Part shown: positions 33,308 through 52,411 of the stretch, piece by piece | Layout: each line of letters begins with the position of its first letter | How positions within the stretch are numbered: position 1 is the first letter of the stretch | Source of the DNA: Candidatus Kaiserbacteria bacterium RIFCSPLOWO2_01_FULL_50_24 | GTDB taxonomy: Bacteria; Patescibacteriota; Minisyncoccia; Phycocordibacterales; UBA2100 | Direction: 5' to 3' | NCBI GenBank assembly: GCA_001783335.1 | Contig: MFLU01000002.1 | Span: 4,948 to 68,947 of the forward strand | Length of the DNA: 64,000 bases | Notes under the pieces: model-generated | Told to the model about the DNA's origin: nothing | Database searches by the model: none | What the model saw: only the letters and a program-made list of their open reading frames with translations | Position numbers and translations under genes: made by a program

Positions 33308-33315
33308 AGAACACA

Positions 33316-33485
33316 GAAACCAAGCGAACGCTGAAATTCCAAGCACCAAGCACCAAATTACAAACAATATCTAAATTACAATTACTAAATAAAAAACACG
33401 GCCCGTTTTGAATTTGTTATTTTGGTGATTCGAATTTGTTTGGGATTTGTAGTTTGGATTTTTTTGGGATGTTTGTGTTTTGTGA
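33316..33485. repeat. Family A palindromic element, copy 4 (between yidC and jag)
   Basis: AACCAAGCGAACGCTGAAATTCCAAGCACCAAGCACCAAATTACAAACAATATCTAAATTACAATTACTAAATA...GTTTTGAATTTGTTATTTTGGTGATTCGAATTTGTTTGGG. Confidence 0.65.
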
Positions 33486-33548
33486 GTGTCTTGTGACCAA
33501 GGTTGTCTCAGGCTGGAACACAAAGGATTTTTATGGTACACAGAGTGG

Positions 33549-34004
33549 ATGTCTGATGTCACAGCTGTAATCCAAGGTGTTTTGAACGCCGCAGGCGTGT
33601 CCTTCAAGGGCGCAGACTCACGCGAGGTGGCTGGTCAAACTATCTACAACATTGAAACGGAGAATCACATGCTCATTGGCCTTCGCGGCGATACGGTTCA
33701 CGCCCTTGACACGCTCGTGAAAAGAATCGTTGAGAAACAATCCGGCGCGGCAGACGGAGATGAGCGCGCACAGTTTCTCGTGGATGTTAACGGATATCGC
33801 GCAAAACATATTGAAGATCTAAAAGCCAAGGCGCTCATAATGGCGGAACGAGCACGGTCATTCCAATATGACGTAGAGCTGACGCCCATGAACGCTTACG
33901 AGCGCCTCATTGTGCACACTTCGCTTACGGATGCGCCGAATATCAAAACAGAATCACAAGGAGAAGGCCGCGGCCGCCGTGTGGTCATCCGCTACGTTTC
34001 GTAA
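33549..34004 (+). CDS. jag: Jag/KhpB-like RNA-binding protein (KH + R3H domains)
   Basis: C-terminal R3H motif (ELTPMNAYERLIVHTSL). Fourth member of the conserved rpmH-rnpA-yidC-jag cluster. The start was chosen at MSDVTAV. Confidence 0.7.
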   Translation: MSDVTAVIQGVLNAAGVSFKGADSREVAGQTIYNIETENHMLIGLRGDTVHALDTLVKRIVEKQSGAADGDERAQFLVDVNGYRAKHIEDLKAKALIMAERARSFQYDVELTPMNAYERLIVHTSLTDAPNIKTESQGEGRGRRVVIRYVS

Positions 34005-34163: not shown

Positions 34164-34553
34164 TCACTGGGCCTGCCGCAAACTGCGTATCGCGTCCAAG
34201 TTTAAAATATCGGGATTTATCTGGTAGAGAATGATATATACCGCGATGAGGAGGAGGAGCCCCAATGCAACATCTTGCAATATCTCACGCCCCTTTTGTT
34301 TTGACGGCCATAAGTCACTCGCAATATAGAGGTATCCGGCCCACGCAATGCGCATGACGGCGAGAATCGCCCCGACACTTATCGCTATTTTGAACGCGTT
34401 GTTGATAAACGTCGCAAGATCTTGATTGGGATTCACTATCTGTGAGAGCGCCGGTGACAGATTGTCATCTGTCAAATTGAACACCGCCTGATACATGCCG
34501 GCTGTGTAGAGGGAGTGTATATAGTCACGAAATTTTTTGTAGATATTGGCCAT
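34164..34553 (-). CDS. Small two-TM membrane protein, possible VirB2/TrbC-like component of the T4SS-like locus
   Basis: 129 aa with two hydrophobic helices (FKIAISVGAILAVMRIAWAGYLYI and VALGLLLLIAVYIILYQI). The assignment rests on size, topology and context only. Confidence 0.3.
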   Translation of the reverse strand: MANIYKKFRDYIHSLYTAGMYQAVFNLTDDNLSPALSQIVNPNQDLATFINNAFKIAISVGAILAVMRIAWAGYLYIASDLWPSKQKGREILQDVALGLLLLIAVYIILYQINPDILNLDAIRSLRQAQ

Positions 34554-34561
34554 ACTTATTG

Positions 34562-34775
34562 TCAGTTGACGACAGAATGTAAAAATAAAACATCAAAAAT
34601 CAAAATAACAGTTTAAAATCTAAAATGGCCGCCCATGAGCGCAGAATAACATGTTGCAGTTTTGCATTGCATGCCCCGTACCAAAATCAGCAGGTATCCT
34701 CATATTATTGAAGTGGTCGAATGTTGAGATTTTTGGTGCGGGGTAATTTTTCATTTTGAAATTTACATTTTTATT
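34562..34775. repeat. Family B palindromic element with a nested CCCCGTACCAAAATC / GATTTTTGGTGCGGGG inverted repeat
   Basis: Read directly between two T4SS-locus genes. Confidence 0.55.
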
Positions 34776-36062
34776 TTAGCGTAGCGAGAGTACCCACAGA
34801 GACCAGTCCTGCGCGTTGCGGAACGCAAGGTACGCGCCGTCGTCGCTCACAACGGGTACTTCAGCGTCAATCAAGAAGCCCTCCTCAATACCCGGATCAA
34901 ATAATTGTTTCGCTGTGCCGAGTTCTACATTTATTTCCCACCACACATCGCTTGTGTGCGTTTCGCCCCGATACCAGCGATTCAAAAACTCGCTATCCGT
35001 GTTTCCGTGTGGCACGGCACAGTATGCCACGCTCCCACTTGGCGCGAACGCACACTTCTCTGCAATGGTGGAAAGTGGCAATAAGGCAGGTTCATCCACA
35101 CTGCTTTTCTGCACATACAGCGAGAGTTTTCCTTTCTCGGACGCGCCATAGAGGATTGCGGACGAAGACGCGTGGATCGCTATGGTGAGTCCCGGTATGT
35201 TTCGTACGACAGGGACAATTTTGTTTGGAGTGGTAGCGTCGTATGCGTGCCCAACCACGTTGTCTGCCGGGCGTGTTGCCACGATAATGCGGTCTTTGTT
35301 TGCATAGTAAACAGTCCAGTCGCGCGTTCCAAACGTAGCGATACGTTTTTTATTCCCCCCGTTCGCGCTCGCCAACATGAGCGCCACGCCACCGTTTCCG
35401 TCTGGAGCAAGGTACGAGATTGTGTCACCCGAAGGCGAGATCGCAAGCGAGAGGATACGCTCTTCCAGCTCGTTCGAGACGAGGGATTTTGCGCTTGATG
35501 AGGAGATAACAACTCCAGTTTTTGTAATCAGCGTTCCGTCCTCAATACCACGGAGAAATACACGCTCTCCGGCAAACAACGCCTCTTTTACCCACGGCAC
35601 AAGCGTGTTGGTCAGGCGCGAGACGGCGCGTGTTCCCACATGGGCCTCTAGTACGTTTCCCGTAGCGCGTTCCACAAAACGGAGCGTTGTTGTCCCGCCA
35701 GCGGTCGTAAAAGCCATGCCTGCCGTTGGAAGCGCGCTTGCATGCCATAGCCGCGGGCGACTCGTCTCGTTCTCTTCCTCTCTAAAAAACACGAACGGCT
35801 GGACGGCTTTCTTTGTGGCGTCCTGTACGCTACGCCAGAGTGGCACGGAAGGGATGGAGTGTACGAGATTTAGGTAGGTGCTGCCTCCGGAGGATGTAAA
35901 CTCCGGAGCGCTTATATCAAGCCCTCGCGCTGTATCAATGATCCGTTGGGACCTCGTCTCGCTTTTCAGGAAAAAATACCACCAGCCAAGGAGTCCGAGT
36001 GATACGACTATAATGCCAATGAGGGCTATGCGAACGGACTTTTGTATTGTGTTGTTGTGCAT
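34776..36062 (-). CDS. Membrane-anchored hypothetical protein with a predicted beta-propeller-like (TolB-like) periplasmic or extracellular domain
   Basis: N-terminal TM helix (IALIGIIVVSLGLLGWWYFF). Repeated S/G/D-rich beta-strand segments (ISPSGDTISYLAPDGNGGVALM...). Confidence 0.45.
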   Translation of the reverse strand: MHNNTIQKSVRIALIGIIVVSLGLLGWWYFFLKSETRSQRIIDTARGLDISAPEFTSSGGSTYLNLVHSIPSVPLWRSVQDATKKAVQPFVFFREEENETSRPRLWHASALPTAGMAFTTAGGTTTLRFVERATGNVLEAHVGTRAVSRLTNTLVPWVKEALFAGERVFLRGIEDGTLITKTGVVISSSSAKSLVSNELEERILSLAISPSGDTISYLAPDGNGGVALMLASANGGNKKRIATFGTRDWTVYYANKDRIIVATRPADNVVGHAYDATTPNKIVPVVRNIPGLTIAIHASSSAILYGASEKGKLSLYVQKSSVDEPALLPLSTIAEKCAFAPSGSVAYCAVPHGNTDSEFLNRWYRGETHTSDVWWEINVELGTAKQLFDPGIEEGFLIDAEVPVVSDDGAYLAFRNAQDWSLWVLSLR

Positions 36063-36084
36063 ACGCGGCTAGTGAGTTAGTACA

Positions 36085-36485
36085 AGTTAAAAAGTAAAAA
36101 TGAAAAGGTAAAAATTACAGTTAAAAGTTAAAAGCTACTGGCGACGTAAGCAAAGCTTTCCGGCAGCACTCGTTCGGAAACGGAAAAATGAATTTTCCCG
36201 TTTCGCTCACTCGCTTGCCGATAAGCAAAGCTTTCCGGCAGCGCTCGTTCGGAAACGGAAAAATGAATTTTCCCGTTTCGCTCACTCGCTTGCCGGTAGA
36301 GCGAGCGAAATGTAAAAGTACTCTTTTGCATTTCCGAGCCGAGCCTGCCCGAACGACCGTTCGGTCGGGCGGGGAGCCAGAAACCGGCGCGCCGGTTTAC
36401 ATCCACGTCGAGGGTACTCTTTGACCTAACTTTTAATTTTCCATTGTCGTTTTTCATTTTTCACTTTTAGTTTTTAACTGTCGGG
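36085..36485. repeat. Composite element: a family B palindrome split by about 285 bp carrying a two-unit 63 bp tandem repeat and GC-rich palindromes
   Basis: Left arm at 36085-36135 and right arm at 36420-36482. The insert has the unit TAAGCAAAGCTTTCCGGCAGC[A/G]CTCGTTCGGAAACGGAAAAATGAATTTTCCCGTTTCGCTCACTCGCTTGCCG twice, plus CCGAACGACCGTTCGG and AACCGGCGCGCCGGTT. Confidence 0.6.
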
Positions 36486-36491
36486 CACACT

Positions 36492-37538
36492 CTACTCATT
36501 ACCAAAAAAGCCACTTTGGGTCGTCGGCTCAAATGTTATATTCCACGTGTTCCGCGCATTTTGCAGCCAATTTACGGCATGGCTGAATATAAGTTCTATC
36601 TGCGCCACCACCTGAGCTCCTTCCGTGCGTATAGTAATTTGATTTTGTTCGCTACCTGGCACGAGCGAGCGATTTACGCCCCAGTTGAATATATAGTCAT
36701 TCTGTTCTCTCGCCGTGTCTGCGTAATAGGGAGTGGCGGTGAAGGTTGCCTCTCGGTCGTCAAAAAAAGCGTTCTCTTGTATAGCCGCATTGGTGAGCAC
36801 TCCAAAAAGCGGATGTTCATGGTATAGCAAAAGCACGGGTTCGTATGAAGAAATGCGCTCTGATGCGTAGCCGCGATATGTATCGTCCGACGATGTTACC
36901 GTTACTGAAAGGATGTGTGAGCCGAATAACGGTGGAGTTGGCACTTCCACAATATTTTTCCCGCGTCCCGAAACGCTAATGAGCACATGGTTGTTCCTGC
37001 GCCACGTGTAGGTAAGTTCGTTCGACTCCAGTGTGCTGCCGTTTGCGCGGCGGAATCGTGTCAGCGCTTCTGCGCGCATGGTCACTCCTGCCGATGGAAG
37101 CGCGCGTCCGCGAAAAAATGGCGGCACGTATGAGTTCGCGCTCCAATGGAGGTCAACCTCCGTGGGGCGTATCGTAACAAGTCCGACGGCGCGCGCCCCG
37201 TCCGGTGAAATCGCGGCCACCTCCACCGACACACTCGTCCCACTCGCTCCAAGCGTGACCGTAGCGCTTCGCACGCCGGTTCCCGATGTAATCCGTTTCC
37301 CATTCGCACTCCACGATATGGCGCTTTCTCCAAGCTCAAGAACGTTTCCGATGACACGGAGAGTAACGATCTCAAATGGCGCCGGGTACGCGGGGTCAAC
37401 TTCAATAGATAACGGATCGACGGGAGAGAGGAGCGTTTGTCCATGTGCGGCAAGCGGTATCATACATACCGTCATGATAAGCAGTCGAAAACACCACATG
37501 CTCGTTGTCATATATTTAATGTTCGGCAGGAGCGCCAC
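36492..37538 (-). CDS. Hypothetical secreted protein (signal peptide, beta-rich)
   Basis: Hydrophobic N-terminal helix (MWCFRLLIMTVCMIPLAAHGQ). It overlaps the virB4-like gene by 23 nt and is probably co-transcribed. Confidence 0.45.
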   Translation of the reverse strand: MALLPNIKYMTTSMWCFRLLIMTVCMIPLAAHGQTLLSPVDPLSIEVDPAYPAPFEIVTLRVIGNVLELGESAISWSANGKRITSGTGVRSATVTLGASGTSVSVEVAAISPDGARAVGLVTIRPTEVDLHWSANSYVPPFFRGRALPSAGVTMRAEALTRFRRANGSTLESNELTYTWRRNNHVLISVSGRGKNIVEVPTPPLFGSHILSVTVTSSDDTYRGYASERISSYEPVLLLYHEHPLFGVLTNAAIQENAFFDDREATFTATPYYADTAREQNDYIFNWGVNRSLVPGSEQNQITIRTEGAQVVAQIELIFSHAVNWLQNARNTWNITFEPTTQSGFFGNE

Positions 37539-39645
37539 CCAGAGGGCTCTGTCCGTCGGGACCTTGTCCCGTTGTTATTGCGGGAGTTTTGTCAGCAAGA
37601 CCGGGCATTGTCGTAGGTGTCTGATTGACGGTGGACGGCACTTCCAGCTGTTGGGCGGAAGGAGGGGGCGGAGGAGAGACCTCTCCTTGTGTAGGCGCCT
37701 TCTGTGTAGCGACTATGGGGCGCATCGGTTCGGGCGGCTCCGGCGCATCGGTTGTGGGCGGCATAGGTGCGCTGGCAGGAACCTCAACTGCCCGGGAGAG
37801 TTGAGGCTGGTTATCGAGCCCAAATTCTTCGGTGGCGAGACGTTCTTGCTTTGCTTTTTTAATGGCAAGTATTTGCGATGGGTCGGAGGTAATTATCTGG
37901 TCTTCCGTGTAGGAAGCTATAATCTTTATGGCGACATGTTTTAACCCTGCGAAGAATATCCCCTCCCCCACATCAGACTCCAAGAGCAGGTATTTCTCCT
38001 CATCTGAAAGTTTGAATGTGTTTTGTACGAGATCTACCGATGTTGGCGATTGCCGCAATAGTATCTGAATAGACGAGTTCGTTATCATAGGGATTCCATA
38101 GGGAGAGTTCAAGAAGTCAGACACGTCTTGCGTTATGGTAGAAATGCCAAGATAGTATTTACGTCCGCGTTTTGCGATTGAAAATAGAAATGATGCAGTG
38201 TCTTCCGAGCGCATCATCCACCATGCCTCGTCTATGACCAAGAGGCGCTTGCGTAGCTCTTTCCGCACGGTATTCCAAATGTGGTGCGTGATGATGTACA
38301 TGGCTACGGGTTTCAGGTCGTCTTCCATGTCGCGCACTGAAAAAACTACCAATCTTTTATTCATGTCTACATTCGTCGGGCGATTCATAAAGCCGGACCA
38401 CGTTCCCTTGGTGTACTTTGAAAGGCGCTGTACCAAGGACTCCGAACCCTCCATGCCGGAGAGCACGAGCTCAAAGTCGGAAAGGAGCGGCGGCTCTATG
38501 GCCGCGAAGTTCGCGTCCGCGCTGATGTCCTTGAGCGCATACGTTTCTGTGATTGCCTTATCAATGACCGCGTCTTCTTCCGGCGTGAGGCCTCCTAGCA
38601 TGATGCGGAAGAGTCCGACGAGCGTAATAATGTTGTTGCGTAGGACGTCTGAAGGATTCTCATCCTCACGCGGAATGGGCAGGTCAAATGGATTGATATG
38701 GTGTTCCGAAGAAAGAGAAATGTTGAAGTAGCGTCCGCCCACCGTCTCTGCCAAATATTCGTATTCGCGCTCCGGGTCTATGACGATTACTTCAGTGTCA
38801 AACATGAGCGAGCGGAGAATTTCTAGTTTGGTGGCGTATGATTTTCCGGCGCCGGATTTTGCGAAAGTGACCGAGTTATAATTCTCCAAACTAAATCTAT
38901 CAAAAAGAATGAGCGACGAATTGTGGCGGTTGATGCCAAACAGGATTCCCCTATTCGAGGTTAGGTCGAATGAAATGAACGGGAACACAGAGGAAAGCGG
39001 AGCCGAATTTAGCTTCGTGTGCACTTCAAGCTCGTCGGACGCTATCGGAATGGTGCTCCTGAATCCTTGCTCTTGTTGAAAAAGCGCCGGACGGATGTAC
39101 ACGAGGCGCGACTCAAGGACGGATCGTATTTCTGATTCCACCTTGTCTATTTCCTCACGCGTTGCGCCGTATATCGTGAGATAGAGCCCGACTTCAAAGA
39201 TGCGTTCTTGCGCCTGCTGAAGCGAGTCGCGCAATTGCTCAAGGTCGGCGTAGGCAGTGTCTAGTTGGGGGTTGCGCACCATTCCCTTCTCTTCTCGCGC
39301 CGCTATTTGGCTTTGCACCTCAGCCACCTTTTTTTGGAATTTTCGCAGTACCTCCGTCGTGTCCATGGGATGTATAAAAATGGAAATATCCAAAACCTTG
39401 TCCATGTTGATGATGGGAGAAAACCATCCCGTAGTGAGAAAGCGCGGATACGATATAACAAAAAACGTACGAGCAATCTTTTCTCCGAGGTCAAGCTCGC
39501 GCGGGCTGACGCGGAGCGCATGTGGCGCGATGACATCTTGGAGGTCAAGGACACCAGTGCGGTAGATTTCTTCCGGCAACACGGGTAAAACCTGTGCCAC
39601 AGGCAATTTCTTTTTTCCGAACGGAAGAAAGTCCAATAAAGCCAT
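37516..39645 (-). CDS. virB4: VirB4/TrbE/CagE-family type IV secretion ATPase
   Basis: Walker A FAKSGAGKSY and a Walker B in the VirB4-typical DEAW context (RLLVIDEAWWMM). 709 aa with a C-terminal Pro-rich tail. Confidence 0.8.
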   Translation of the reverse strand: MALLDFLPFGKKKLPVAQVLPVLPEEIYRTGVLDLQDVIAPHALRVSPRELDLGEKIARTFFVISYPRFLTTGWFSPIINMDKVLDISIFIHPMDTTEVLRKFQKKVAEVQSQIAAREEKGMVRNPQLDTAYADLEQLRDSLQQAQERIFEVGLYLTIYGATREEIDKVESEIRSVLESRLVYIRPALFQQEQGFRSTIPIASDELEVHTKLNSAPLSSVFPFISFDLTSNRGILFGINRHNSSLILFDRFSLENYNSVTFAKSGAGKSYATKLEILRSLMFDTEVIVIDPEREYEYLAETVGGRYFNISLSSEHHINPFDLPIPREDENPSDVLRNNIITLVGLFRIMLGGLTPEEDAVIDKAITETYALKDISADANFAAIEPPLLSDFELVLSGMEGSESLVQRLSKYTKGTWSGFMNRPTNVDMNKRLVVFSVRDMEDDLKPVAMYIITHHIWNTVRKELRKRLLVIDEAWWMMRSEDTASFLFSIAKRGRKYYLGISTITQDVSDFLNSPYGIPMITNSSIQILLRQSPTSVDLVQNTFKLSDEEKYLLLESDVGEGIFFAGLKHVAIKIIASYTEDQIITSDPSQILAIKKAKQERLATEEFGLDNQPQLSRAVEVPASAPMPPTTDAPEPPEPMRPIVATQKAPTQGEVSPPPPPSAQQLEVPSTVNQTPTTMPGLADKTPAITTGQGPDGQSPLGGAPAEH

Positions 39646-39662
39646 AGTTTAAATCGTAGTTG

Positions 39663-40325
39663 CTACGTCCCTTGATTTACTAAAGACACCGGCTTTCCCT
39701 CTTCGCCGGGGTTAAAGAGTTTATACAGGAGCTCTATTGCTTCTTCTGTTCCAAGTTGTACGGTGCGCACGCCGGTTCTGACGAGCCCCTGTTGGACTAT
39801 CCCGATGCGCTGTTCAAGTTGTGAGACCTGTTCTTCAAACGTGCGGCTTTTCTCTTCCTCACTCGCTGCTTTTTGGAATGGAAGCATGTTTGCCACACCA
39901 CGGCGTGTGACGATAGGCGCTGGCGCATAGGGTACGACCACGAAGAAATTCTTTGTCATAACGTTAGCGGCCTCGGTAAAACTTTTTATGAATTCTATAT
40001 ATTCTCGTATCTGTATGCGCATGAGATCGTCCAACTGACTCTTATATGCCTCCTCGAGTGTTGCGATGTACGGACGAATGTCCAACATGCGCGATTGCAC
40101 GAAGATTTGGACGGAAAAATCCAGAGAGTTCAAGAAATTCTGGAATTGCAGAATGAACGCGGTCTGTTCGTCTTCCGACTTTAGGGCAAAATTGAGTGAT
40201 GAGGCAAGGAGTATTGCGCGCATGCTTCCGTCCTTTAAAATCATCACGCCGTCGCGCACTTCGCGCACAGGAACGAAATCCTGTGTTGATTTGTTGCGTA
40301 CTCTAAGATTTGAGAGCGTGTTCAT
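39663..40325 (-). CDS. Hypothetical protein of the T4SS-like locus (immediately upstream of virB4)
   Basis: 220 aa, soluble. No family recognised. Confidence 0.4.
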   Translation of the reverse strand: MNTLSNLRVRNKSTQDFVPVREVRDGVMILKDGSMRAILLASSLNFALKSEDEQTAFILQFQNFLNSLDFSVQIFVQSRMLDIRPYIATLEEAYKSQLDDLMRIQIREYIEFIKSFTEAANVMTKNFFVVVPYAPAPIVTRRGVANMLPFQKAASEEEKSRTFEEQVSQLEQRIGIVQQGLVRTGVRTVQLGTEEAIELLYKLFNPGEEGKPVSLVNQGT

Positions 40326-40334
40326 AACCAGTCA

Positions 40335-40515
40335 GTGAATCAATAAAAAAGCACAAAACACAGGAACCAGAACACAAATAAAGCACAGGAACCAAAACAC
40401 AAACCACAAACAAAATTCACACTCCTCCCAACGTACTCGTTTGTATTCTGTGCTTTTTTCATGTTTGTGTTTTATTTGTGCTTTGTGCAATTTGTGCTCT
40501 GTGATTTTTACCGGT
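40335..40515. repeat. Family C element, copy 2
   Basis: AGCACAAAACACAGGAACCAGAACACAAATAAAGCACAGGAACCAAAACACAAACCACAAAC ... TGTGCTTTTTTCATGTTTGTGTTTTATTTGTGCTTTGTGC. Confidence 0.5.
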
Positions 40516-40538
40516 AACTGTTACTATCTACTATAAAT

Positions 40539-41042
40539 TCATATCCGTGCTTCCCGGGCGGTTCGGACAGGCGCAACGACGTTGTCGCGTGCGTCGCGCA
40601 TTGCGTATGTCTCCCGGTCTTCAGACGACGCGGTGCCCGACTGTATGCGCTCTTGAATATCTAATGCCCACGCAAGGTCGTGCAGTTTGCTACCCGAGAG
40701 GTGTGGTATGTAGGAAGGGGGTTTGGCGGCCCCAATTTCTTTTTTTTGTATTTCGGCACGCTTGTGCTCCTTATTCCACAGGTATAGTTTTGAACGTAAG
40801 AAGTAAAAGAGCCCGTGCTCCAGTGCGACGATAAAGGGTCTCCCGTTGAATTGTAAAAACGCGAGCGCCACCGCAAGAGTGCCTACCGCAAGTATGAAAG
40901 GTGCGGCAATGTAAAGAGGCAGTATGCGCCAGAAGAGGTAACAACACCCAGCGCCTCCTATGACATATATGAATTGCTTGAACGTGAGGGGGCCGAATAT
41001 CTTGTCCTCTACCTCAATAAATTGTGGAACTTGGAATTGCAT
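40539..41042 (-). CDS. VirB3/PrgI-like small membrane protein (two TM) of the T4SS-like locus
   Basis: MQFQVPQFIEVEDKIFGPLTFKQFIYVIGGAG N-terminus with two hydrophobic helices. Confidence 0.4.
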   Translation of the reverse strand: MQFQVPQFIEVEDKIFGPLTFKQFIYVIGGAGCCYLFWRILPLYIAAPFILAVGTLAVALAFLQFNGRPFIVALEHGLFYFLRSKLYLWNKEHKRAEIQKKEIGAAKPPSYIPHLSGSKLHDLAWALDIQERIQSGTASSEDRETYAMRDARDNVVAPVRTAREARI

Positions 41043-41334
41043 TAGATTTTCTTAGATTTAATTATCGAGCGTAGCGAGATTAGTAAATCTTAGACCCCGT
41101 GAAATCCTCGCCAAAGGCGAGGAGCCGCGAAGCGGCATTTTACCGGGGTTAAGTGCAACTAATTTACTGACGCTCATAAGTTTTACTAAACCTTATGCCC
41201 AGCACCATTATTCCCGACCGAATATTGTGCGGTGCGCGTGCGCGTATAGCGCATCCCCTGCTGGGCGAAGCGCATTGCCGCTCGCTTGGCTCATATGTCC
41301 CATTGTACACCGTTTGGAAACGGAATAATGGTGC

Positions 41335-41492
41335 TTGGGCTGGATAACCCGCACACTTACTTGCGTCTAGTTTTGCGGTAGATGGTGAGATGCAATGACA
41401 AAGCCGTGTTTCCTGTACATACGGAGCGACGAGTATAATTCGTGGGGCAAAACAGGAGCAAGACGCAAGTAAGTGTGCGGGATAACCCAGCA
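41335..41492. mobile_element. MITE-like or hairpin element with a 31 bp perfect terminal inverted repeat (GGCTGGATAACCCGCACACTTACTTGCGTCT ... AGACGCAAGTAAGTGTGCGGGATAACCCAGC)
   Basis: Read directly. The interior of about 95 bp extends the stem imperfectly. It lies in the 635 bp non-coding gap inside the T4SS-like locus. Confidence 0.45.
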
Positions 41493-41676
41493 CCAGACTT
41501 TGGCTTAGTCGGTATCAATGATAGTGTCTTCAGGTTTGCACGGTGAATAGCGTCCAGAATTACAATAGTACTCTGGCGCGTCCCGACAGAGGAAAGCCAA
41601 AGTTGGTTCATGGGCAGGCCCGCACACCCACTGTCTGCATTGTTTTTTCCAGTTTCCAGCTTCAAGCGTCCAGCAT

Positions 41677-42261
41677 CTAGAGTGGCGGCTCTCTATACGG
41701 GTCGCCCTCGGTGTCTTTGCGCGCGCTACTCAATTCGTGCGGTTTATACGATGGAGATACGGGCGCGCGCTCCGCTTTGGCGGTTGAGGGCACTTTGGGT
41801 GGTGTGGCAGGAACTATTGGAGCGACGGGCGACGGTGCTGGTTTTGCGGCAATTTTTCCATTCCTGTCTTCCGCCCTAAGAATGCTTTCGCGTGCTCTTT
41901 CAACACCACTCCTCTCTTCCTCTTTCGCTTGCGGATGTTCCAGTTCCCGCTCCAGTCCTTCGCGTATAGGCTCAAATATCATTGTGGTAATGTCATTTGT
42001 AAGCGCGAGCGCAGAGTCAGCGGGTACGCCGATGTCGTCGGTGATACGTTTCTGGAGCTCCTCTGCGTGATATACGCCGAAAAGCGTGAGCATCACGAGA
42101 TTTTCAAGCGCTTGCCACTGGTCCAGATGTAATCGATGCTCTTTTGAGAGCTCGCGCAAACGTTTCTCCGGGTTGCCGGAAAGTATCGCGTTTTGCACCG
42201 CTTTCGGGAGCTTTGTGAAACGCTCTTGTATCAACGTTTTGAAATCTTTTTCTTCGGTCAT
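41677..42261 (-). CDS. Hypothetical protein (acidic N-terminal half, Pro/Ala-rich C-terminus)
   Basis: 194 aa. No family recognised. Confidence 0.4.
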   Translation of the reverse strand: MTEEKDFKTLIQERFTKLPKAVQNAILSGNPEKRLRELSKEHRLHLDQWQALENLVMLTLFGVYHAEELQKRITDDIGVPADSALALTNDITTMIFEPIREGLERELEHPQAKEEERSGVERARESILRAEDRNGKIAAKPAPSPVAPIVPATPPKVPSTAKAERAPVSPSYKPHELSSARKDTEGDPYREPPL

Positions 42262-42274
42262 ACCCCGTCAGTGA

Positions 42275-42475
42275 CTAGTGCAAATTAAAAAGTAAAAATG
42301 AAAAGTTAGAAATTACATCCCCGTCGAGAGCACTCTTGGGCCTGACTTTTAATTTTTCATTGCATGCCCCGTACCAAAATCTGCGAACGTGGTTTGAGCG
42401 CATAAAGAGGAACGGTGAGATTTTTGGTGCGGGGTCGTTTTTCATTTTTCACTTTTAGTTTTTAACTTAATGCAG
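42275..42475. repeat. Family B palindromic element with a nested CCCCGTACCAAAATC/GATTTTTGGTGCGGGG inverted repeat
   Basis: Read directly between the virB6-like gene and the 41677 gene. Confidence 0.55.
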
Positions 42476-42496
42476 CGGAACACAGTCGCGTGCTTA

Positions 42497-44755
42497 CTAC
42501 GGTCCACCCGGCGAGCGTGGCGCAGATGGCTTTGACGAATCCATGTGTCCCCGCACCATGTCCGAGATCCTGCCCAAGTCTTTCTTTTCCTTGCGCGTTG
42601 TAACGGCTGCCCTGGATTGGTATGCGAGTGAGTCGTTTTTTTCGGTGAGCGGTATCCCCATTTTCTCACGGAGCACATTAGTGAATCTCCCGCGCGCGCT
42701 TTCAAATGCGGCCTCTTGTGCATCTAGAAACTTTTCTGGAAGCAGACCTTTGTCTTTGGCAATCTCATCCACCCGGTCAAGGATGGCTCTTTGCAAGTCC
42801 GTGTCTCGCTTAATGGATTTTTGCGCTTGAGAGATACGGCTCTTTACTTGTTCCAGGTTCGAGTTGTCCCTGTCGTGTTCTTCTCTACGCCTATCAACCT
42901 CTTGTCTCGCCACGCTTGTATCTCTTACTCCACCGGATATCAAATCCTCCAAGTGCTGTTCTGATTCACGAAGGATCTTTTGACTCTTTGCCGCGCTGTT
43001 CGTATGCTCTATGCTTGCGTTCATTGCCTGCGCCAATTCATTCTGTGACGCGATCAATCTGTCCATCGCATCTTTGTTCTGCCCCGCGAGTTGTGTGTTT
43101 CCAGCAAAAACATCTTCACGGACTTTGTCTATAAACTTTTCCTGCTCTTCTTTTGACATTGCGACGCGCTCCCCCTCGCGCGCGTAACGCTCCGTGGCCC
43201 GCTTTTCTGCCCCCGCATATCCTTTCGTGTCCTCCCCCGTGAACGTCCCCGATTTTTTGAATTGTGCGACTTTTTGTATTTCACGTCCGAGCATGGAGTG
43301 TGTCGCATTGAAGTCGCGTGTCGCGATTTTTTTGGCCGCCTTCTCGCTGGTGTCGTACATTGCTTGCTGAAGGCGATTTGTCGCATACGGGCGCCATCCA
43401 CCCATGGCTTTGGGAGAAAGAGGTTTGCCATCTTTGTCTAGACCCGCTCTCCGTATGTCGGTACCACGCATCTGCGCCCACGCGCCCGCCCCGCTTGCTG
43501 CCAAGCCCAACGTTCTTCTTCCCGCGAATGCGGCTATTCTGCCGCCGAGGCCTAAGGCAAGAGCTGGCGCAAGCGCCGCCATGCTGAAGCCACCTATGTT
43601 TTTTGCGAACATAGAGGCGAGCTTGACGGATACATATAAAAATCCGATAACAAACAGAAACATGATGATGGCGAGCCACCCGTTTTGGTTTCCCGGATTT
43701 TGGATGAACTCGATAAGGTTCGCGGACCCCTGTGGCGCACGCAGGAGAACGAGTGATGCCCACAAAAATATCATTAAGAGCGGTCCAAAGAGTGCCGCTT
43801 TTATGAGCATTTCCCACCACCCCTTCCAGCCGTACTGCGAATCGCCGAATTGCGGAATGAGATACGAGGCGAACGCGAGAGAAGACGTTATGGTGACGAA
43901 TATCAAAAGGATTGCGCGTGACACCATAAGGAAACTGGCGTAAAGAAAGATGAGAGCAGAAACAAGCAAAAACGTACTGACGGCAACCGCGTATACAATA
44001 ATGATGGCGGCACTATCGTTTTTGGTGCCAATTCTGTACAAAACGCCTGCCGTATCAAACAAACCCGGGACCCCCGCGCGCCCCATGAATGCCCCTGCAA
44101 TGCCGGAAGTTGACTGTGCTGCGGCGACAATCCCCTGTTCGCTCGTGGTAGGAGCGCCCTGACCCGCCGTGCCAGCCACGGCGGAGATTGATTCCTTGTA
44201 GAATATGCCCGCAACGAGGTTGGAGCTGTCAATAATGATGCGTGTGAAAAGCAAACTGAAGTTAATCAGTACGGCAACGATAAGTACGCGCGCTATCATT
44301 GCTTTGTCGCCGTAGCGCGTTATGCCGAGAATTATAGAGATTGCGATAAATACGAACATGCCGATGATGAGGATGTTTGCAATGTCGCGGAATGCTTCCC
44401 ACACAAGATTAATGCCATCGGCGATACCGAGTTTTTGAAGGACAAGCGATAGGTCTACGACGGTCCATTGTATGAGTGCATCAAACACGGCTCCGGCGAT
44501 GACCGCGAGCATACTGGAGAGCGATATGAGCAAAAAACCCAGGAATGTGAATATTAGTTGTAAAGCCCACTGTATCGTCCACCGATACACGGTCCCACCG
44601 ATTTGTGACAACAGAGAGCCGTCTGCCGCCTCTGCTGCATACGCGAGAATCGGAATGCAAAGTAAAACGAGCGTGGTTGCACAGAGTGTCGCGTATAAAT
44701 ATGGGCGTATGCGTTCCGACATAGTACTTATTGCGTTTTCCAACGGTCTATCCAC
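42497..44755 (-). CDS. VirB6/TrbL-like polytopic membrane protein with a long C-terminal coiled-coil cytoplasmic domain
   Basis: 752 aa. A signal-like N-terminus, roughly 10 hydrophobic helices over the first 430 aa, then about 300 aa of charged coiled-coil. Confidence 0.45.
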   Translation of the reverse strand: MDRPLENAISTMSERIRPYLYATLCATTLVLLCIPILAYAAEAADGSLLSQIGGTVYRWTIQWALQLIFTFLGFLLISLSSMLAVIAGAVFDALIQWTVVDLSLVLQKLGIADGINLVWEAFRDIANILIIGMFVFIAISIILGITRYGDKAMIARVLIVAVLINFSLLFTRIIIDSSNLVAGIFYKESISAVAGTAGQGAPTTSEQGIVAAAQSTSGIAGAFMGRAGVPGLFDTAGVLYRIGTKNDSAAIIIVYAVAVSTFLLVSALIFLYASFLMVSRAILLIFVTITSSLAFASYLIPQFGDSQYGWKGWWEMLIKAALFGPLLMIFLWASLVLLRAPQGSANLIEFIQNPGNQNGWLAIIMFLFVIGFLYVSVKLASMFAKNIGGFSMAALAPALALGLGGRIAAFAGRRTLGLAASGAGAWAQMRGTDIRRAGLDKDGKPLSPKAMGGWRPYATNRLQQAMYDTSEKAAKKIATRDFNATHSMLGREIQKVAQFKKSGTFTGEDTKGYAGAEKRATERYAREGERVAMSKEEQEKFIDKVREDVFAGNTQLAGQNKDAMDRLIASQNELAQAMNASIEHTNSAAKSQKILRESEQHLEDLISGGVRDTSVARQEVDRRREEHDRDNSNLEQVKSRISQAQKSIKRDTDLQRAILDRVDEIAKDKGLLPEKFLDAQEAAFESARGRFTNVLREKMGIPLTEKNDSLAYQSRAAVTTRKEKKDLGRISDMVRGHMDSSKPSAPRSPGGP

Positions 44756-46527
44756 ATATCAAGCACGGACTGATTGTTCACATTACACCAGCCAATAGTA
44801 GGGTCGGTGGAATCGGCCCACGCGACTATCGTATCTTCTACGAGCGACTTAACCGCACTATTCACATCCTCAAGTTGTTTTTGTGCCGCCACGAGGTCGT
44901 ACTGATTATGGAGAAGTTTTTGCGCGACAAGCGAATCCAACTGTTCAAGCGCGAGACGCTGATTGGTAACCGACGATGTGTTCGTCACTCCCGCGATAAG
45001 CTGGTTTATCAATTGCACCGCTTTTTCCGATGCTTGTACGTCGTTCGCTACTTGGACCGCGACGGGCGACACTTGCGCGTCAATGACCGCTTGCGATTCG
45101 GCGGTTGATGTTGCGACGTTCAGTGTCCCGCCTCCTACCGTTTGACACTTCCCCCCCGACACGGGCGTCGCACACACTCTGTCTATGATTAAGTTCCAGC
45201 ACTGCCGCTCCGCAGAACGCAGTTGGTTGACGAGGGAAGTGAGTGTTTGCGCGATTTTACGTTTGGCTTCCCAAAACGCAGTCTCTATCTGACGCGCGGC
45301 GTTCAAAATACCTATAGCCACATTTGCCACGGCGTTGCGCAACCCCTGCCCGGACTCTGCAGCCATTCTATCGAGGTACGACGGCTGCCCGCCGAGCGAC
45401 TGCGTGAGCCCGTAAAGACCGCGTGTGTCGGTGGACGCCTGCGTGGAGAGGCCGGAGAAAAGCGCACTCACGATTTGGTCTATCTCGGTCGCGCTTTCCA
45501 ACTGTTTGCGGCCGCTGTCCAGTGTTACCCAGAGCGACCGGGCGATGAGCATGCTCGGCGTCACGATATTTGCTGTAAATGGATTATCAAGGTCGTCTTT
45601 CTGCGCGTAAAAGCCGTCGCCCCAGTCCCATTCTTGTCGCACGTTTTGTTCCAGTTGGGTTAGTTGCATCTCTACATTTTCTCGCGCGAGTATGAATGCG
45701 CCTAGCTCGTGGTTCGCGGGATTGAGCCCGTATTCCATGAGGCCGGAAAGTCCGCCGCACTTGGTCATGTCACCGTCCAAGAATGCTCGCCGATCCGCGT
45801 CAGAGCAGGTAATGGTGCACGCGAACGCACTGTTTGTTTTTTGGGTTGTCATATAGTAATTGCGTGCGATGGCGGGCCGCACCTTGTCTTTAAATGTAGA
45901 GCATAATGGCGACAAGTATTCTTCACTCTTGAGAAGTTGCACAAATCCCTTACTTTCTTCTTCCAGTAATTCGTATCGAATATTTTGTACATACTGTGGA
46001 TTGCCGCCACGCCCTGATACCGCATCGGTAATTCGCTTTTTCGCTAATCCCGACGTGAGGCTCTCTACTTGTCTTTTGATAACGCCGTCCAATACGCATT
46101 CTTTATAAATGAGGTAGCCGGTGTTAAGGGTTACGGCCGCATCGTTGACGGGTACATAGATGCTCCCGCGCGCGGCAAGCGCGCCCACGCTCATGGAGTA
46201 CGAGCCCGTCTGGTTACAGCCGAATATTCCTTCTCGCTGAAACTGGTAATCTTCCGTTGCGGGCGTTGGAGGCTGTGTGGCGTCTTGTGCAGACGCGAAC
46301 GCCGGAGTAGCAAGAAGCGCGAGCATTAGTATGTATACTCTGGAATTCATAGCGGATTTTGATCGCGAGCGAACCGCACAAAACTCGTCGCGAGGGTCAA
46401 AGACGGGCTTGACGACGTGCCCAAGGCACGGTGAGAGGCCGTCTGCATGCCCGCAGCAGAGTTTTGTGCGGCGCAGCCGCGAGACGAGACTGTATTGTTT
46501 GCTTTTTTCATAGTCCGAGCTGGTCAA
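44728..46527 (-). CDS. Hypothetical secreted protein of the T4SS-like locus
   Basis: Internal signal peptide (MNSRVYILMLALLATPAFASAQ). Cys-containing N-domain, Q/A-rich C-terminal half. It overlaps the virB6-like start by 28 nt. Confidence 0.45.
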   Translation of the reverse strand: MTSSDYEKSKQYSLVSRLRRTKLCCGHADGLSPCLGHVVKPVFDPRDEFCAVRSRSKSAMNSRVYILMLALLATPAFASAQDATQPPTPATEDYQFQREGIFGCNQTGSYSMSVGALAARGSIYVPVNDAAVTLNTGYLIYKECVLDGVIKRQVESLTSGLAKKRITDAVSGRGGNPQYVQNIRYELLEEESKGFVQLLKSEEYLSPLCSTFKDKVRPAIARNYYMTTQKTNSAFACTITCSDADRRAFLDGDMTKCGGLSGLMEYGLNPANHELGAFILARENVEMQLTQLEQNVRQEWDWGDGFYAQKDDLDNPFTANIVTPSMLIARSLWVTLDSGRKQLESATEIDQIVSALFSGLSTQASTDTRGLYGLTQSLGGQPSYLDRMAAESGQGLRNAVANVAIGILNAARQIETAFWEAKRKIAQTLTSLVNQLRSAERQCWNLIIDRVCATPVSGGKCQTVGGGTLNVATSTAESQAVIDAQVSPVAVQVANDVQASEKAVQLINQLIAGVTNTSSVTNQRLALEQLDSLVAQKLLHNQYDLVAAQKQLEDVNSAVKSLVEDTIVAWADSTDPTIGWCNVNNQSVLDMWIDRWKTQ

Positions 46528-46558
46528 AATCCGCTATGAGTTCCTTGTGTTATTCATA

Positions 46559-47446
46559 CTATTCGGTTTTGCGCACGTAGTATGTGGCGAGCGCGTCAAA
46601 CGAGTAGAAGACCTCACGCTCCACGGCGTTATACGTTTGGAGGAGAACCGCCGAGGCGAACGGGTCGGTGCCGTGGTTTGCCATTCCCTCAAGCACTGCC
46701 GCGAACGCGATGAGCGCGTTCACAACACGAGCGTGTTTGTCTCCTGCGTCTTTGGGCACGGTAACTTCTGCGGCGTGTTCAGCCGCGACGCGATATTTCT
46801 CTGCTATCGGCATCAAATCTGCAAGGTATGCAGGGTCCTCTGTTTCAATGTAGCGCGCGAACAGGTCAAACTCCGATACGCGATTTTCAAAAAGCGGCAT
46901 AAGCGCCTCGCGGAGGAGATTGCGATACACGAGAGCGCTCTCGTGGGAAATGTCGGGAGTGAGTGTGAATGACTCCGCACTGTAGCGCTCAAAGTGTGGT
47001 GTGTATCGCATGCTTTGTGCCACACTTTTTCCTATGAGATTCCCCTTGTCTTCCGTATATGTTTCAGCTTGTTTCAGCGCTATGTATTGTCCTAAGAGCT
47101 GTATGCCGATAACTTCCCCGGCGTACGTAAGGAGTTCGTCGTCTGGGGATGTATATATACGCTCTTTGGTTGTGGTGCTCTCGGTTTCGCCATACGCGGC
47201 GAGCAATTTTTTCCAGTCCACATTGTCCGCTTGTTGTTCTCTAGGTGCGGTAAGTAAAAACGAAGGGGTCTCTTCGTGGACTGCGTATTGAAGCGCCTTT
47301 CTTGGTCCCTGCAACTCCGCCATTTGCCAGCCGAGTGCCGCAAGAAGAGCGGCGATAGCCACGGCGGCGGTAGTTGTAATGGATCCACGTCTCGTTAGAG
47401 GCGGTGTCTTTAACGGGGCACGTTTACGAACGTGTAATTCTCCCAT
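46559..47446 (-). CDS. Hypothetical membrane-anchored protein
   Basis: Single N-terminal TM helix (TTAAVAIAALLAALGW), then a soluble domain. Confidence 0.4.
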   Translation of the reverse strand: MGELHVRKRAPLKTPPLTRRGSITTTAAVAIAALLAALGWQMAELQGPRKALQYAVHEETPSFLLTAPREQQADNVDWKKLLAAYGETESTTTKERIYTSPDDELLTYAGEVIGIQLLGQYIALKQAETYTEDKGNLIGKSVAQSMRYTPHFERYSAESFTLTPDISHESALVYRNLLREALMPLFENRVSEFDLFARYIETEDPAYLADLMPIAEKYRVAAEHAAEVTVPKDAGDKHARVVNALIAFAAVLEGMANHGTDPFASAVLLQTYNAVEREVFYSFDALATYYVRKTE

Positions 47447-47483
47447 TCTTCTATGGTATCACGCCCAAATTACGCGGCGGTGC

Positions 47484-48392
47484 TCAAAACGCGGTTGCTG
47501 GTGAAAACGTGAACACACTCCCCGGCTCGTGGGAGGAGAAGGATATTTCTGCCACGGAAAAAAATGTGGCGAGCGTTACTACGGCGGTGACGAGTGAATC
47601 GGCGGCGGCGTTGGATTCATTAATATGGTCAAGGAGTTCGCTATCATTTTGCGCTCCGGTAATCGCACCCAATTTACTTCCCGCGTCTTTATACCGCTCT
47701 GCGATAAGAGCGTGCATGCCCGAAAGGCTCTCTGGAACAAATACCATTGCGAGCATCTCTTCTCCGACATGTGCTATTGAAAGTCCAAGGCGGCGCACCT
47801 CCTCCTCCTTCGTGGTATTTTCGCGGTCTGCGTAAAAGTCTTTTAAAATAGAAACTGCGCGCGTGCCGTACGAGGCTTCGTATGCATGTATGTAGGACCC
47901 AACCTCGTTGCCGTATTCATAGAGCACGTGTTCCTCGTCGCTTCGATCCGGCGGTTCAGAAACGGCGCGAAGCCCCTGCGGAACAAGCGAGTATATTTCG
48001 TCAAGAAAAGAGGTGTCTTCTGTGGCAAGAACTGGGTACGAAGACGGGCGTACGGAAGATAGAAGGAGCGTGTATACATCGAGCACATCTTTCTCAGGCT
48101 TATTCTCATCTGGAGCAGACAGAGCCGGAAGCGGCGGACTGTATTGAAACGGCGAGAGTTGTACAAACGAATCGGAAATGTCACGCTTAGGCGCAGATAG
48201 GGCGGGTACATATATGCCACTCGTTCCTCCCCATGTGGTCGCATACGGGGGGGGATTATGTGCGGTGCGCGAAGATACTATGAGGAGCCCGACTAGGACG
48301 AGCGCCGCCACGCCACCTATGATTGGAAGGAGTGAATGGTTCTGAAGCCACATGAGAGTAGTATAACGCAAAATCCAAGTCGCAGGAATCAA
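47484..48392 (-). CDS. Hypothetical membrane-anchored protein (first gene of the locus)
   Basis: N-terminal TM helix (LLPIIGGVAALVLVGLLIV) and a Pro-rich linker. Confidence 0.4.
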   Translation of the reverse strand: MIPATWILRYTTLMWLQNHSLLPIIGGVAALVLVGLLIVSSRTAHNPPPYATTWGGTSGIYVPALSAPKRDISDSFVQLSPFQYSPPLPALSAPDENKPEKDVLDVYTLLLSSVRPSSYPVLATEDTSFLDEIYSLVPQGLRAVSEPPDRSDEEHVLYEYGNEVGSYIHAYEASYGTRAVSILKDFYADRENTTKEEEVRRLGLSIAHVGEEMLAMVFVPESLSGMHALIAERYKDAGSKLGAITGAQNDSELLDHINESNAAADSLVTAVVTLATFFSVAEISFSSHEPGSVFTFSPATAF

Positions 48393-48394
48393 AC

Positions 48395-48570
48395 GACTGC
48401 TAAAATTCCAAGTACCAAACGAACATTAAAATTCCAAGCACCAAATTACAAACAATGTCTAAATTCCAATTACCAAATACCAAACACGACATGCCCGTTT
48501 TGAATTTGTTATTTCGGTGTTTTGAATTTGTTTGGAATTTGGGATTTGTAATTTGGATTTCATGATGTGT
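48395..48570. repeat. Family A palindromic element, copy 5 (in the divergent promoter region)
   Basis: ACCAAACGAACATTAAAATTCCAAGCACCAAATTACAAACAATGTCTAAATTCCAATTACCAAATACCAAACAC...GTTTTGAATTTGTTATTTCGGTGTTTTGAATTTGTTTGGAATTTGGGATTTG. Confidence 0.65.
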
Positions 48571-48594
48571 ACGCTAGTGGTATACTAGAATCAT

Positions 48595-48921
48595 ATGACG
48601 CGCACTATTTCAGGTATCATATTTTGCGCGTGTCTATTCACGCTGTCGGCTCCCCTGTTTGTTCACGCGTTTCCCTTCGGTGGACAGATTTCGCTCATTA
48701 GACCATGCTACAACAACGCCATTTTTGTGCGCGTCGGACCGCCACGTGGTGGCGATTTCATCTGGACGCCTTCCACTAAAACGTACTTATTTAGTCCGCC
48801 GCGCCGCGCCGGCCAATGGCTTTTGGGGCTCACGGGCGTACCCTACCAGTGCATAGTAACACTTCAGCCGCTTGACACCTGGCCAGGCATTCACATAATG
48901 ATGATGGGGAGCAGTCGCTGA
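48595..48921 (+). CDS. Hypothetical small secreted protein
   Basis: Signal peptide MTRTISGIIFCACLFTLSAPLFVHA. The 3' end overlaps the first unit of a GC-rich direct repeat. Confidence 0.35.
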   Translation: MTRTISGIIFCACLFTLSAPLFVHAFPFGGQISLIRPCYNNAIFVRVGPPRGGDFIWTPSTKTYLFSPPRRAGQWLLGLTGVPYQCIVTLQPLDTWPGIHIMMMGSSR

Positions 48922-49124
48922 TGCGGAATGGTTGACCATTCTGCATAGACGACTGCTCGGCCGGAGCGATGCCGAGCCAGCAGGCGAGGCCGCGAGGCGT
49001 GGTCACGACCGAGTCCGAGCGACGGCGAGGACTAGAGCTGTGACGCAGTCGCTGATGCGGAATGGTTGACCATTCTGCATAGACGACTGCTCGGCCGGAG
49101 CGATGCCGAGCCAGTAGGCGAGAA
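48912..49124. repeat. Pair of about 78 bp direct repeats (one mismatch), each with a nested hairpin GCAGTCG-CTGAT-GCGGAATGGTTGACCATTCTGC-ATAGA-CGACTGC
   Basis: Units at 48912-48990 and 49046-49124. They lie within a roughly 440 bp non-coding block of about 65% GC (48925-49360). Confidence 0.6.
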
Positions 49125-49364: not shown

Positions 49365-49500
49365 CTGATAAAAATTAAAAAGGAAAAAGTAAAAACGACA
49401 ATTAAAAGTTAAAAATTATCCAAATTGTAACGACAGCGGACGTTTTACATTTTAAACTGCAATTTTTACTTTTTCATTCTTAATTTTTAATTTAAAATAT
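49365..49500. repeat. Family B palindromic element immediately upstream of the sod gene
   Basis: AAAAATTAAAAAGGAAAAAGTAAAAACGACAATTAAAAGTT ... TTTTACTTTTTCATTCTTAATTTTTAATTT. Confidence 0.55.
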
Positions 49501-52095: not shown

Positions 52096-52111
52096 TGGCG
52101 GGAATAATAGA

Positions 52112-52411
52112 TTATGCGCGCGGCTTATCCAAGCTCGCGAGACCGAGCACTTTGAATATAAGGTATACCGCGAGCGCAAGAACAAAAAAATCAACGACTG
52201 CTCCTATGAATTTTCCTATCGCGATAGTGCCCAAGTGAACATCCGCAAGTCGCTGGGTGCCGCCGAAAAGATAGACGAGGGTCGGATTAATGATGTCGGC
52301 AGAAAATGACGTGGTAACGCGTGAGACCGCGCCACCCAAAACAAAGCCGATCGCGAGCCCCATGACGCCGCGTTCTCGGATGAAATCTATAAAACCAAGT
52401 ATCTGTTGCAT
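52112..52411 (-). CDS. mscL: Large-conductance mechanosensitive channel MscL
   Basis: 99 aa. GFIDFIRERGVMGLAIGFVLGGAVSRVTTSFSADIINP matches the MscL TM1/loop consensus. Confidence 0.8.
   Translation of the reverse strand: MQQILGFIDFIRERGVMGLAIGFVLGGAVSRVTTSFSADIINPTLVYLFGGTQRLADVHLGTIAIGKFIGAVVDFFVLALAVYLIFKVLGLASLDKPRA

Follow-up and report, generated by a model that had tools for sequence, protein, structure and literature searches.

The closest described relatives of the gene cluster reported here are the type IV secretion systems (T4SS) of the Patescibacteria. In Ca. Southlakia epibionticum a T4SS cluster at the genome start is essential for epibiotic growth; it shows a Gram-positive-like composition with essential pilins and contains neither a relaxase nor a coupling protein (Wang et al. 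2023, Cell, PMC10633639). A later survey detected VirB4, as a clade nested in MPF-FATA, in 2,417 of 3,035 genomes of Patescibacteria, with TrsD, VirB3/PrgI, VirB6 and VirB2-like pilins encoded near virB4, TrsD being the commonest of these components and relaxases being rare (Quinonero-Coronel et al. 2025, Microb Genom, PMC12102498). According to the same study the Paceibacteria cluster lies near dnaA/dnaN and, in its Table S3, follows the order VirB6-x-VirB3-TrsD-VirB4-x-VirB2; its genome list contains Ca. Kaiserbacteria RIFCSPHIGHO2_01_FULL_50_13 as VirB4-positive. A 2025 FEMS review treats the Patescibacteria T4SS as an established member of the superfamily and speculates that T4SS and pilus form a conduit to the host. 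We analysed 64,000 nucleotides (nt) of the genome of Candidatus Kaiserbacteria bacterium RIFCSPLOWO2_01_FULL_50_24 (contig MFLU01000002.1, positions 4,948 to 68,947), in the following called the window, which carry such a cluster at 34164-48392 on the minus strand. With a probability of about 0.88 this locus is a chromosomal, non-conjugative T4SS of the Patescibacteria type. The system as such is already described in the literature of 2023 to 2025, and the locus adds no new kind of system.

The likeness to the published Patescibacteria T4SS is close. The locus is chromosomal and near dnaA, encodes a VirB4, a TrsD-like protein, a PrgI/VirB3 protein, a VirB6-like protein and a VirB2-like pilin, has no relaxase or coupling protein in the cluster, and its gene order is that of the published Table S3. 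A comparison with T4SS-like loci of this group of bacteria had been proposed in a preliminary description of this DNA, and it ends in this match. Differences are seen to the cluster of Ca. Southlakia epibionticum (SEML1_0006-0019), which has a six-pilin array, in contrast to the single pilin gene in the window; in addition, there are no peptidase or lysozyme genes beside the virB4 of the window. The genes of the cluster, given in amino acids (aa) and with the evidence in brackets, are:

34164 to 34553, minus strand: VirB2-like T4SS pilin, 129 aa (PF18895, orthologues)
34776 to 36062, minus strand: anchored 428-aa protein, possibly TolB-like propeller (transmembrane prediction, family profile)
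36492 to 37538, minus strand: secreted protein with immunoglobulin (Ig)-like repeats, about 339-348 aa, start GTG 37538 or ATG 37511 (signal peptide, family profile)
37516 to 39645, minus strand: VirB4 motor ATPase, 709 aa (NF045971, PF19044, 4AG5, PrgJ)
39663 to 40325, minus strand: TrsD-like protein, 220 aa, cytoplasmic (N-terminal parts of VirB4 models)
40539 to 41042, minus strand: PrgI/VirB3-like membrane protein, 167 aa (PF12666)
41677 to 42261, minus strand: cytoplasmic 194-aa protein (conserved synteny, alignment)
42497 to 44755, minus strand: VirB6/TrbL-like polytopic protein, 741-752 aa (hydrophobic segments, PF04610 matches of orthologues)
44728 to 46350, minus strand: secreted all-alpha 540-aa protein (predicted model, signal peptide)
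46559 to 47446, minus strand: bitopic four-helix-bundle protein, 295 aa (AlphaFold model)
47484 to 48392, minus strand: bitopic paralogue, 289-302 aa, probable start ATG 48353 (hhalign against the 295-aa family)
48595 to 48921, plus strand: divergent small secreted protein, 108 aa (neighbourhood in 26 related loci)

A check of the open reading frames (ORFs) of the window confirmed the 14-kb co-directional block reported before, with 11 genes on the minus strand and all ORFs at the positions given for them. Together with the divergent 108-aa gene they form a conserved Paceibacteria operon of 11-12 genes.

The motor ATPase of 709 aa contains a Walker A motif (SGAGKS, aa 264-269) and a Walker B motif (IDEAW, aa 471-475). 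It scores 359.3 bits against the hidden Markov model (HMM) NF045971 of NCBIfam (VirB4-like conjugal transfer ATPase, CD1110 family), for which the cut-off is 325, and the match spans positions 185-733 of the 752 model positions. Matches to the Pfam families P-loop_TraG (PF19044, 87 bits), AAA_10 and DUF87 as well as to the solved Thermoanaerobacter VirB4 structure 4AG5 (E 2.2e-40) and to TrwK of R388 were also found, and the protein aligns to residues 244-772 of PrgJ from pCF10 with 25% identity (E 1e-35). The preliminary description had called this protein a VirB4 due to Walker A and the DEAW Walker B, and had named missing support by a VirB4 family HMM as the finding that would speak against it; with a score above the curated cut-off and the match to 4AG5 the call stands. 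The protein is without the usual N-terminal domain, and its C-terminal tail (about aa 600-709) is proline-rich and variable. Identical proteins are deposited in GenBank as 'conjugal transfer protein TraC' of Candidatus Kaiserbacteria bacterium (OGG45013.1, OGG76172.1 and OGG81151.1). The closest relatives belong to the Patescibacteria throughout (73-93% identity), and the best 120 matches listed are Patescibacteria or metagenome sequences with 81-93% identity.

The gene of the 220-aa protein ends 17 nt upstream of virB4. This protein was regarded as an unknown before; it is instead TrsD-like and is matched by VirB4 models in their N-terminal parts only. The matched positions are 100-233 of NF045975 (Mbov_0397 family, E 3e-10), 2-117 of NF045971 (CD1110 family, E 2.6e-5) and 3-179 of TIGR00929 (VirB4_CagE), and the TrsD/TraD model NF041427 is hit with 25.5 bits (E 1e-5), far under its cut-off of 200. 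A profile search of the PDB with the 220-aa family gave nothing usable. Since the 220-aa protein covers the N-termini of the models and the 709-aa protein covers positions 185-733 of NF045971 and 244-772 of PrgJ, VirB4 appears to be split over two adjacent genes. Between the 220-aa family and the N-terminal 250 aa of the family of the 709-aa VirB4, hhalign showed no similarity, which fits complementary pieces and not paralogues. Judged from these alignments, the 220-aa protein is the VirB4 N-terminal domain encoded as a separate gene. A comparable arrangement is known from the Trs systems of pGO1/pSK41, where a separate small cytoplasmic relative of the VirB4 N-terminus (TrsD) is encoded beside the ATPase. 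However, the 220-aa protein fits the N-terminal ends of the models for full-length VirB4 equally well or better than it fits the TrsD/TraD model, and the pGO1/pSK41 system, unlike the locus, is conjugative. PrgJ of pCF10 differs as well, as it is one protein of 796 aa, whereas the VirB4 of the window is split into 220 and 709 aa.

For the membrane core, three assignments made in the preliminary description could be substantiated. The PrgI-like protein matches PF12666 with 41.5 bits (gathering score 27) and TcpE weakly. In the 752-aa protein, 7 hydrophobic segments precede a C-terminal half of about 300 aa, whose only matches are coiled-coil proteins. The window copy gave no family match of its own; its assignment as VirB6/TrbL-like is supported through the orthologues, 6 of 38 syntenic ones matching PF04610 (TrbL/VirB6, best E 6.8e-7). 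Among the tested R388 proteins the 752-aa family is best with TrwI (VirB6), which is not significant (hhalign probability 13%, hmmsearch E 1.8), and neither is its similarity to PrgH of pCF10 (hhalign probability 6%). The 129-aa protein has two transmembrane helices and reaches 24.4 bits against T4SS_pilin (PF18895), just under the gathering score of 26.6. Its orthologues match this family in 25 of 28 cases (best E 6.9e-11) and TrbC/VirB2 in two, so that the earlier VirB2/TrbC-like label can be kept. No second copy of any cluster family was revealed by a paralogue search of the window.

We compared the locus with 80 related loci, one genome per species, from Kaiser-, Nomura-, Taylor-, Campbell- and Adlerbacteria and other Paceibacteria, which were fetched with 10-kb flanks around virB4. 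Wherever the contig is long enough the order 302-295-599-752-194-PrgI-220-VirB4-348-428-pilin is kept, followed by the convergent genes jag and yidC and then dnaA (599 and 348 refer here to the longest ORFs). The sole variation in the order is that the pilin gene sometimes precedes the 428-aa gene. Syntenic copies were found in 77 loci for the 220-aa protein, in 76 for the 348-aa protein, in 75 for PrgI, in 65 for the 428-aa protein (median identity 29%) and in 56 for the 194-aa protein; the 194-aa gene and the 108-aa gene are also part of the conserved neighbourhood. The median identity is 78% for VirB4, 63% for the 220-aa protein, 55% for DnaA, 50% for PrgI and 45% each for YidC and Jag, and lies between 28 and 39% for the envelope proteins. 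VirB4 and the TrsD-like protein are therefore more conserved than DnaA, YidC and Jag of the same genomes.

These numbers bear on the question if the T4SS genes are an integrated conjugative element, or a decaying remnant of one, which was inserted near the origin. The origin genes lie directly beside the cluster (dnaN 28851-29945, dnaA 30136-31503, yidC/jag 32555-34004), and the chromosomal surroundings further comprise genes for superoxide dismutase (SOD), comEC, recJ, pgk, tpi, polA, ruvB, a class A penicillin-binding protein, pilM, pilB, pilC and a pseudopilin. A mobile origin is suggested by the VirB4 itself, which belongs to the conjugative CD1110/MPF-FATA family and is named TraC in GenBank. 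Against it stand the site and gene order, which are identical across the 80 species apart from the moving pilin gene, a G+C content which is even (0.49-0.53 across the cluster and 0.45-0.54 elsewhere in the window, with no discontinuity), and the conservation of VirB4 above that of DnaA, which is the opposite of decay. An ATPase more conserved than DnaA at a fixed site by the origin genes points to neither a mobile element nor a remnant.

The search for conjugation genes gave the same answer. As stated in the preliminary description, no relaxase, type IV coupling protein (VirD4), VirB8/9/10 or VirB11 is present in the window: Pfam scans of its large ORFs showed none of them, and tblastn with PcfC (coupling protein) and PcfG (relaxase) of pCF10 revealed nothing, neither in the window nor in the 80 relatives up to 10 kb from virB4. 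No VirB7-11 protein and no integrase was found in the window, and its sole ATPase of the T2SSE family is of the PilB type and carries an MshEN domain (17473-19167). An ordinary integrated conjugative element, which the preliminary description had kept as an alternative, is contradicted by the missing relaxase and coupling protein and by the fixed site in 80 genomes; we regard an element or remnant of this kind as extremely improbable. With neither a relaxase nor a coupling protein encoded here, the machine most likely does not conjugate DNA.

Known conjugation systems share parts of this inventory. With the Prg/Pcf system of pCF10 the locus has in common a CD1110-family VirB4 (PrgJ), a VirB3 of the PrgI family and a polytopic VirB6-type protein in a monoderm without VirB7/9/10. 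In contrast, pCF10 encodes PcfC, PcfG, the hydrolase PrgK, the VirB8-like PrgL and LPXTG adhesins and no pilin, and none of these proteins has a detectable counterpart in the window. The MPF-T systems of R388/pKM101 resemble the locus by their VirB2-type pilin and are unlike it in that the window has no VirB7/9/10 core, VirB8 or VirB11. Comparisons by hhalign of all families of the cluster with single pCF10 and R388 proteins gave nothing significant.

Six accessory proteins of the cluster and the product of the divergent gene remain outside of the known T4SS families. For five of them a signal peptide or an N-terminal anchor had been proposed, and this was borne out by prediction. The 599-aa ORF is over-long. 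Its first 59 codons cover a further hairpin element, and M60 (46350) is the start of the protein, which opens with a signal peptide; the resulting length of 540 aa is also that of public gene calls. Its model (predicted local distance difference test score, pLDDT, 83.7) is elongated and all-alpha with helices of up to 68 residues, and the protein has conserved cysteines. Foldseek searches of the PDB with this model returned low-TM generic helices only and no neighbour. The 540-aa gene lies directly upstream of the VirB6-like gene, which is the place of virB5 in virB/trw operons (R388), and the protein is possibly VirB5-like, as an unproven candidate. Its size is over twice that of VirB5, and no sequence similarity to VirB5 was found by comparison of the VirB5 profile with the 540-aa family (probability below 1%).

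The 295-aa protein is identical to that of locus tag A2673_02930 of Ca. Kaiserbacteria bacterium RIFCSPHIGHO2_01_FULL_50_1x (a truncated name). Its AlphaFold model (pLDDT 86.4) consists of a transmembrane helix, a disordered linker and an extracellular four-helix bundle. A word-indexed search for homologues gave 6 proteins, and the alignment was built from an exhaustive search of representatives. The families of the 295-aa and the 302-aa protein align over about 140 C-terminal residues (hhalign probability 97.4%, E 9.7e-12), by which measure the two proteins are distant paralogues. The 348-aa protein has a signal peptide and three Ig-like repeats with a W..NG motif, and its family profile matches the Ig-like domains of phage T4 Hoc (E 8.6e-5). 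The 428-aa protein is anchored by an N-terminal transmembrane segment (residues 14-32); its family profile weakly matches 12 TolB chains (best E 0.0036), so that its extracellular domain may possibly be a TolB-like beta-propeller. The 194-aa protein has no transmembrane segment and consists of a helical N-terminal domain, a proline-rich linker and an invariant C-terminal DPYRE motif; no match was found in Pfam, NCBIfam or the PDB. The 108-aa protein, whose gene lies beyond the block described before, has two invariant cysteines and a C-terminal MGSS motif, and after its signal peptide the mature protein begins with FGG; it has no match in Pfam or the PDB. Its gene adjoins the 302-aa gene in 26 related loci, usually divergently (30-65% identity), which makes the protein a candidate for an extra component or a substrate. 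Sequence-profile searches of the PDB with the 540-, 295-, 194- and 108-aa families gave nothing usable.

The set of 540-, 295/302-, 348-, 428- and 108-aa proteins is a candidate for a class-specific trait; no description of it was found in the cited Patescibacteria T4SS papers. One could go further and read the accessory genes (540, 295/302, Ig-repeat, propeller, 194-aa DPYRE and 108-aa) as a Paceibacteria-specific extracellular module which replaces VirB8/VirB1, with the 540-aa protein placed on a VirB2 pilus, either as its VirB5-like tip or as the subunit that contacts the host. We consider this proposal doubtful. If it were true, the T4SS architecture would be one not yet described in any monoderm.

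The components suggest how the machine may be assembled and what it may do, and we infer the following steps from them. The motor would be a split VirB4 made of the TrsD-like N-terminal-domain protein and the 709-aa ATPase. Docked on PrgI/VirB3 and the VirB6-like protein, it would form the translocon of the single cytoplasmic membrane, and its ATPase would also be expected to pull the VirB2-like pilin from the membrane and to polymerise it into a pilus or tube of the conjugative type. Outside of the membrane, the 540-aa protein, the Ig-repeat protein, the possible propeller and the two four-helix-bundle proteins may build or decorate the structure and make contact with the host. The machine would more probably serve the epibiotic lifestyle by exchange of proteins or other macromolecules with the host, in whichever direction these are transported.

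The lack of a relaxase and a coupling protein is shared with import systems, and the locus could also be seen as an uptake machine, which imports DNA or another nucleic acid like the archaeal Ced or the Helicobacter ComB system and perhaps feeds ComEC. In line with that, VirB4 shows a weak partial match to CedB (34.8 bits, E 7e-9), comEC (50596-52194) lies 2.2 kb beyond the cluster, type IV pilus genes are found in the window, and a 2026 preprint on a Microgenomatia isolate proposes the acquisition of host RNA and that tubular connections may be T4SS pili. However, the CedB score falls far short of the 700 bits set as cut-off, and VirB4 fits best into the conjugative CD1110 family. No CedA, CedA1 or other Ced- or ComB-specific protein was recognised. 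Furthermore, deletion of comEC in Ca. Southlakia epibionticum abolishes competence and not viability, whereas the T4SS is essential (PMC12857230). Uptake of nucleic acids is therefore an improbable function of the locus. That SOD and ComEC do not appear in the related loci was considered as an argument against a linkage to comEC and rejected, as these genes lie beyond the fetched 10-kb flank.

Several observations weigh against a non-conjugative T4SS of the Patescibacteria type that interacts with a host. No VirB8-like or VirB1-like component was identified in the cluster, which leaves the passage through the cell wall without an explanation: VirB8-like (NTF2) proteins and VirB1-like hydrolases gave no match in Pfam, NCBIfam, PDB-profile and hhalign searches, the last with PrgL, PrgK, TrwG and TrwN, and the fold of the 295-aa protein is not the NTF2 fold of VirB8. 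The first 23 residues of the window pilin are polar and take the place of the hydrophobic signal peptide seen in most orthologues; the signal-less form occurs in 4 of 27 aligned orthologues. The operon is interrupted by seven hairpin elements. The scan for conjugation genes covers 64 kb of a genome of about 0.84 Mb, the placement of VirB4 within the Patescibacteria clade is suggested by its nearest relatives and the published genome list, and a function in host interaction would be an extrapolation from another class, the Saccharimonadia. As a separate observation, the operon neighbouring the signal-less pilin is that of yidC.

The hairpin elements expand seven junctions of the cluster:

41043 to 41676, no strand: largest palindromic intergenic insertion (inverted repeats, folding)
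34554 to 34775, 36063 to 36491, 40326 to 40538, 42262 to 42496, 46351 to 46558 and 48393 to 48594, no strand: other palindromic insertions (inverted repeats)

They measure 200-630 nt, with folding z-scores of -8.8 and -7.3 for two elements and of -1.3 to -6.7 for the others. The largest is a gene-free stretch of 634 nt between the 194-aa gene and prgI with three or four long hairpins (RNA minimum free energy -233 kcal/mol, z -8.8). It has no match in Rfam, and its sequence is not kept in the relatives; a gap of more than 150 nt is also seen at this junction in about 30% of them. The junctions which are expanded in the window are tight in the relatives, where the gaps have medians of -4 to 66 nt, and the element sequences recur elsewhere in the window and are absent from the relatives. 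This indicates lineage-specific insertions tolerated inside a conserved operon, and the at least six palindromic insertions noted earlier thereby become seven. An ORF of 109 aa (36128-36457) sits inside a palindromic repeat with a tandem duplication of 2 x 75 nt and is probably not a gene.

The operon structure could not be defined by a scan for sigma-70 promoters and terminators, because such sites are no commoner in the cluster than in shuffled sequence. The motif TCACTGAC, present ahead of four start codons, is not enriched in the window. The gene overlaps 44728/44755 and 37516/37538, which had been taken as a sign of co-transcription, exist with the GTG starts of the longest ORFs only; with the in-frame ATGs at 44722 and 37511 they turn into gaps of 4-5 nt.

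Palindromic repeats are not confined to the cluster. Between the genes of the whole window there are A/T-rich palindromic repeats of at least two families, which are absent from the same junctions in the relatives:

3264-3337, 10247-10385, 20586-20708, 24736-24805, 36078-36485, 42268-42473 and 49369-49498: palindromic repeats, one set
3878-4056, 15904-16084, 19227-19409, 33305-33462 and 48398-48569: palindromic repeats, other set

The only Rfam matches of the window are three tRNAs; the structured intergenic regions gave none. Direct duplications were found at 25363-25542 (2 x 90 nt, 100% identical), at 28606-28679 (2 x 37 nt, 100% identical), at 48911-49122 (two 78-nt copies, 134 nt apart, 99% identical) and at 5690-5857 (2 x 84 nt inside a 725-aa ORF, 98% identical). 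A 667-aa ORF without Pfam match (22117-24120, plus strand) contains six cysteine-rich tandem repeats of 144 nt (48 aa) at 22372-23326, and a stand-alone 135-aa protein of the RNase H / RVT_3 type is encoded at 52571-52978 on the minus strand. The window further contains the type IV pilus genes pilM (513-1670), a pseudopilin gene with N-methylation motif (2598-3113), pilB (MshEN, 17473-19167) and pilC (62709-63926) together with comEC. Type IV pilus and T4SS machineries are both reported to be essential in Saccharibacteria.

What the locus adds to the described systems is a fold-level description of six unannotated accessory proteins and the divergent small secreted gene at 48595-48921. New are also the lack of a recognisable VirB8/VirB1 analogue in the cluster and a VirB5-like candidate, which is unproven. 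For specialists the component list of the Paceibacteria operon, with folds for genes that have no annotation in the published tables, and the finding of a VirB4 more conserved than DnaA could be useful. The 2025 survey has the Paceibacteria among its two best-represented classes, and the locus is a clean example from them of a T4SS which is suspected to be a conduit between ultra-small epibionts and their hosts.

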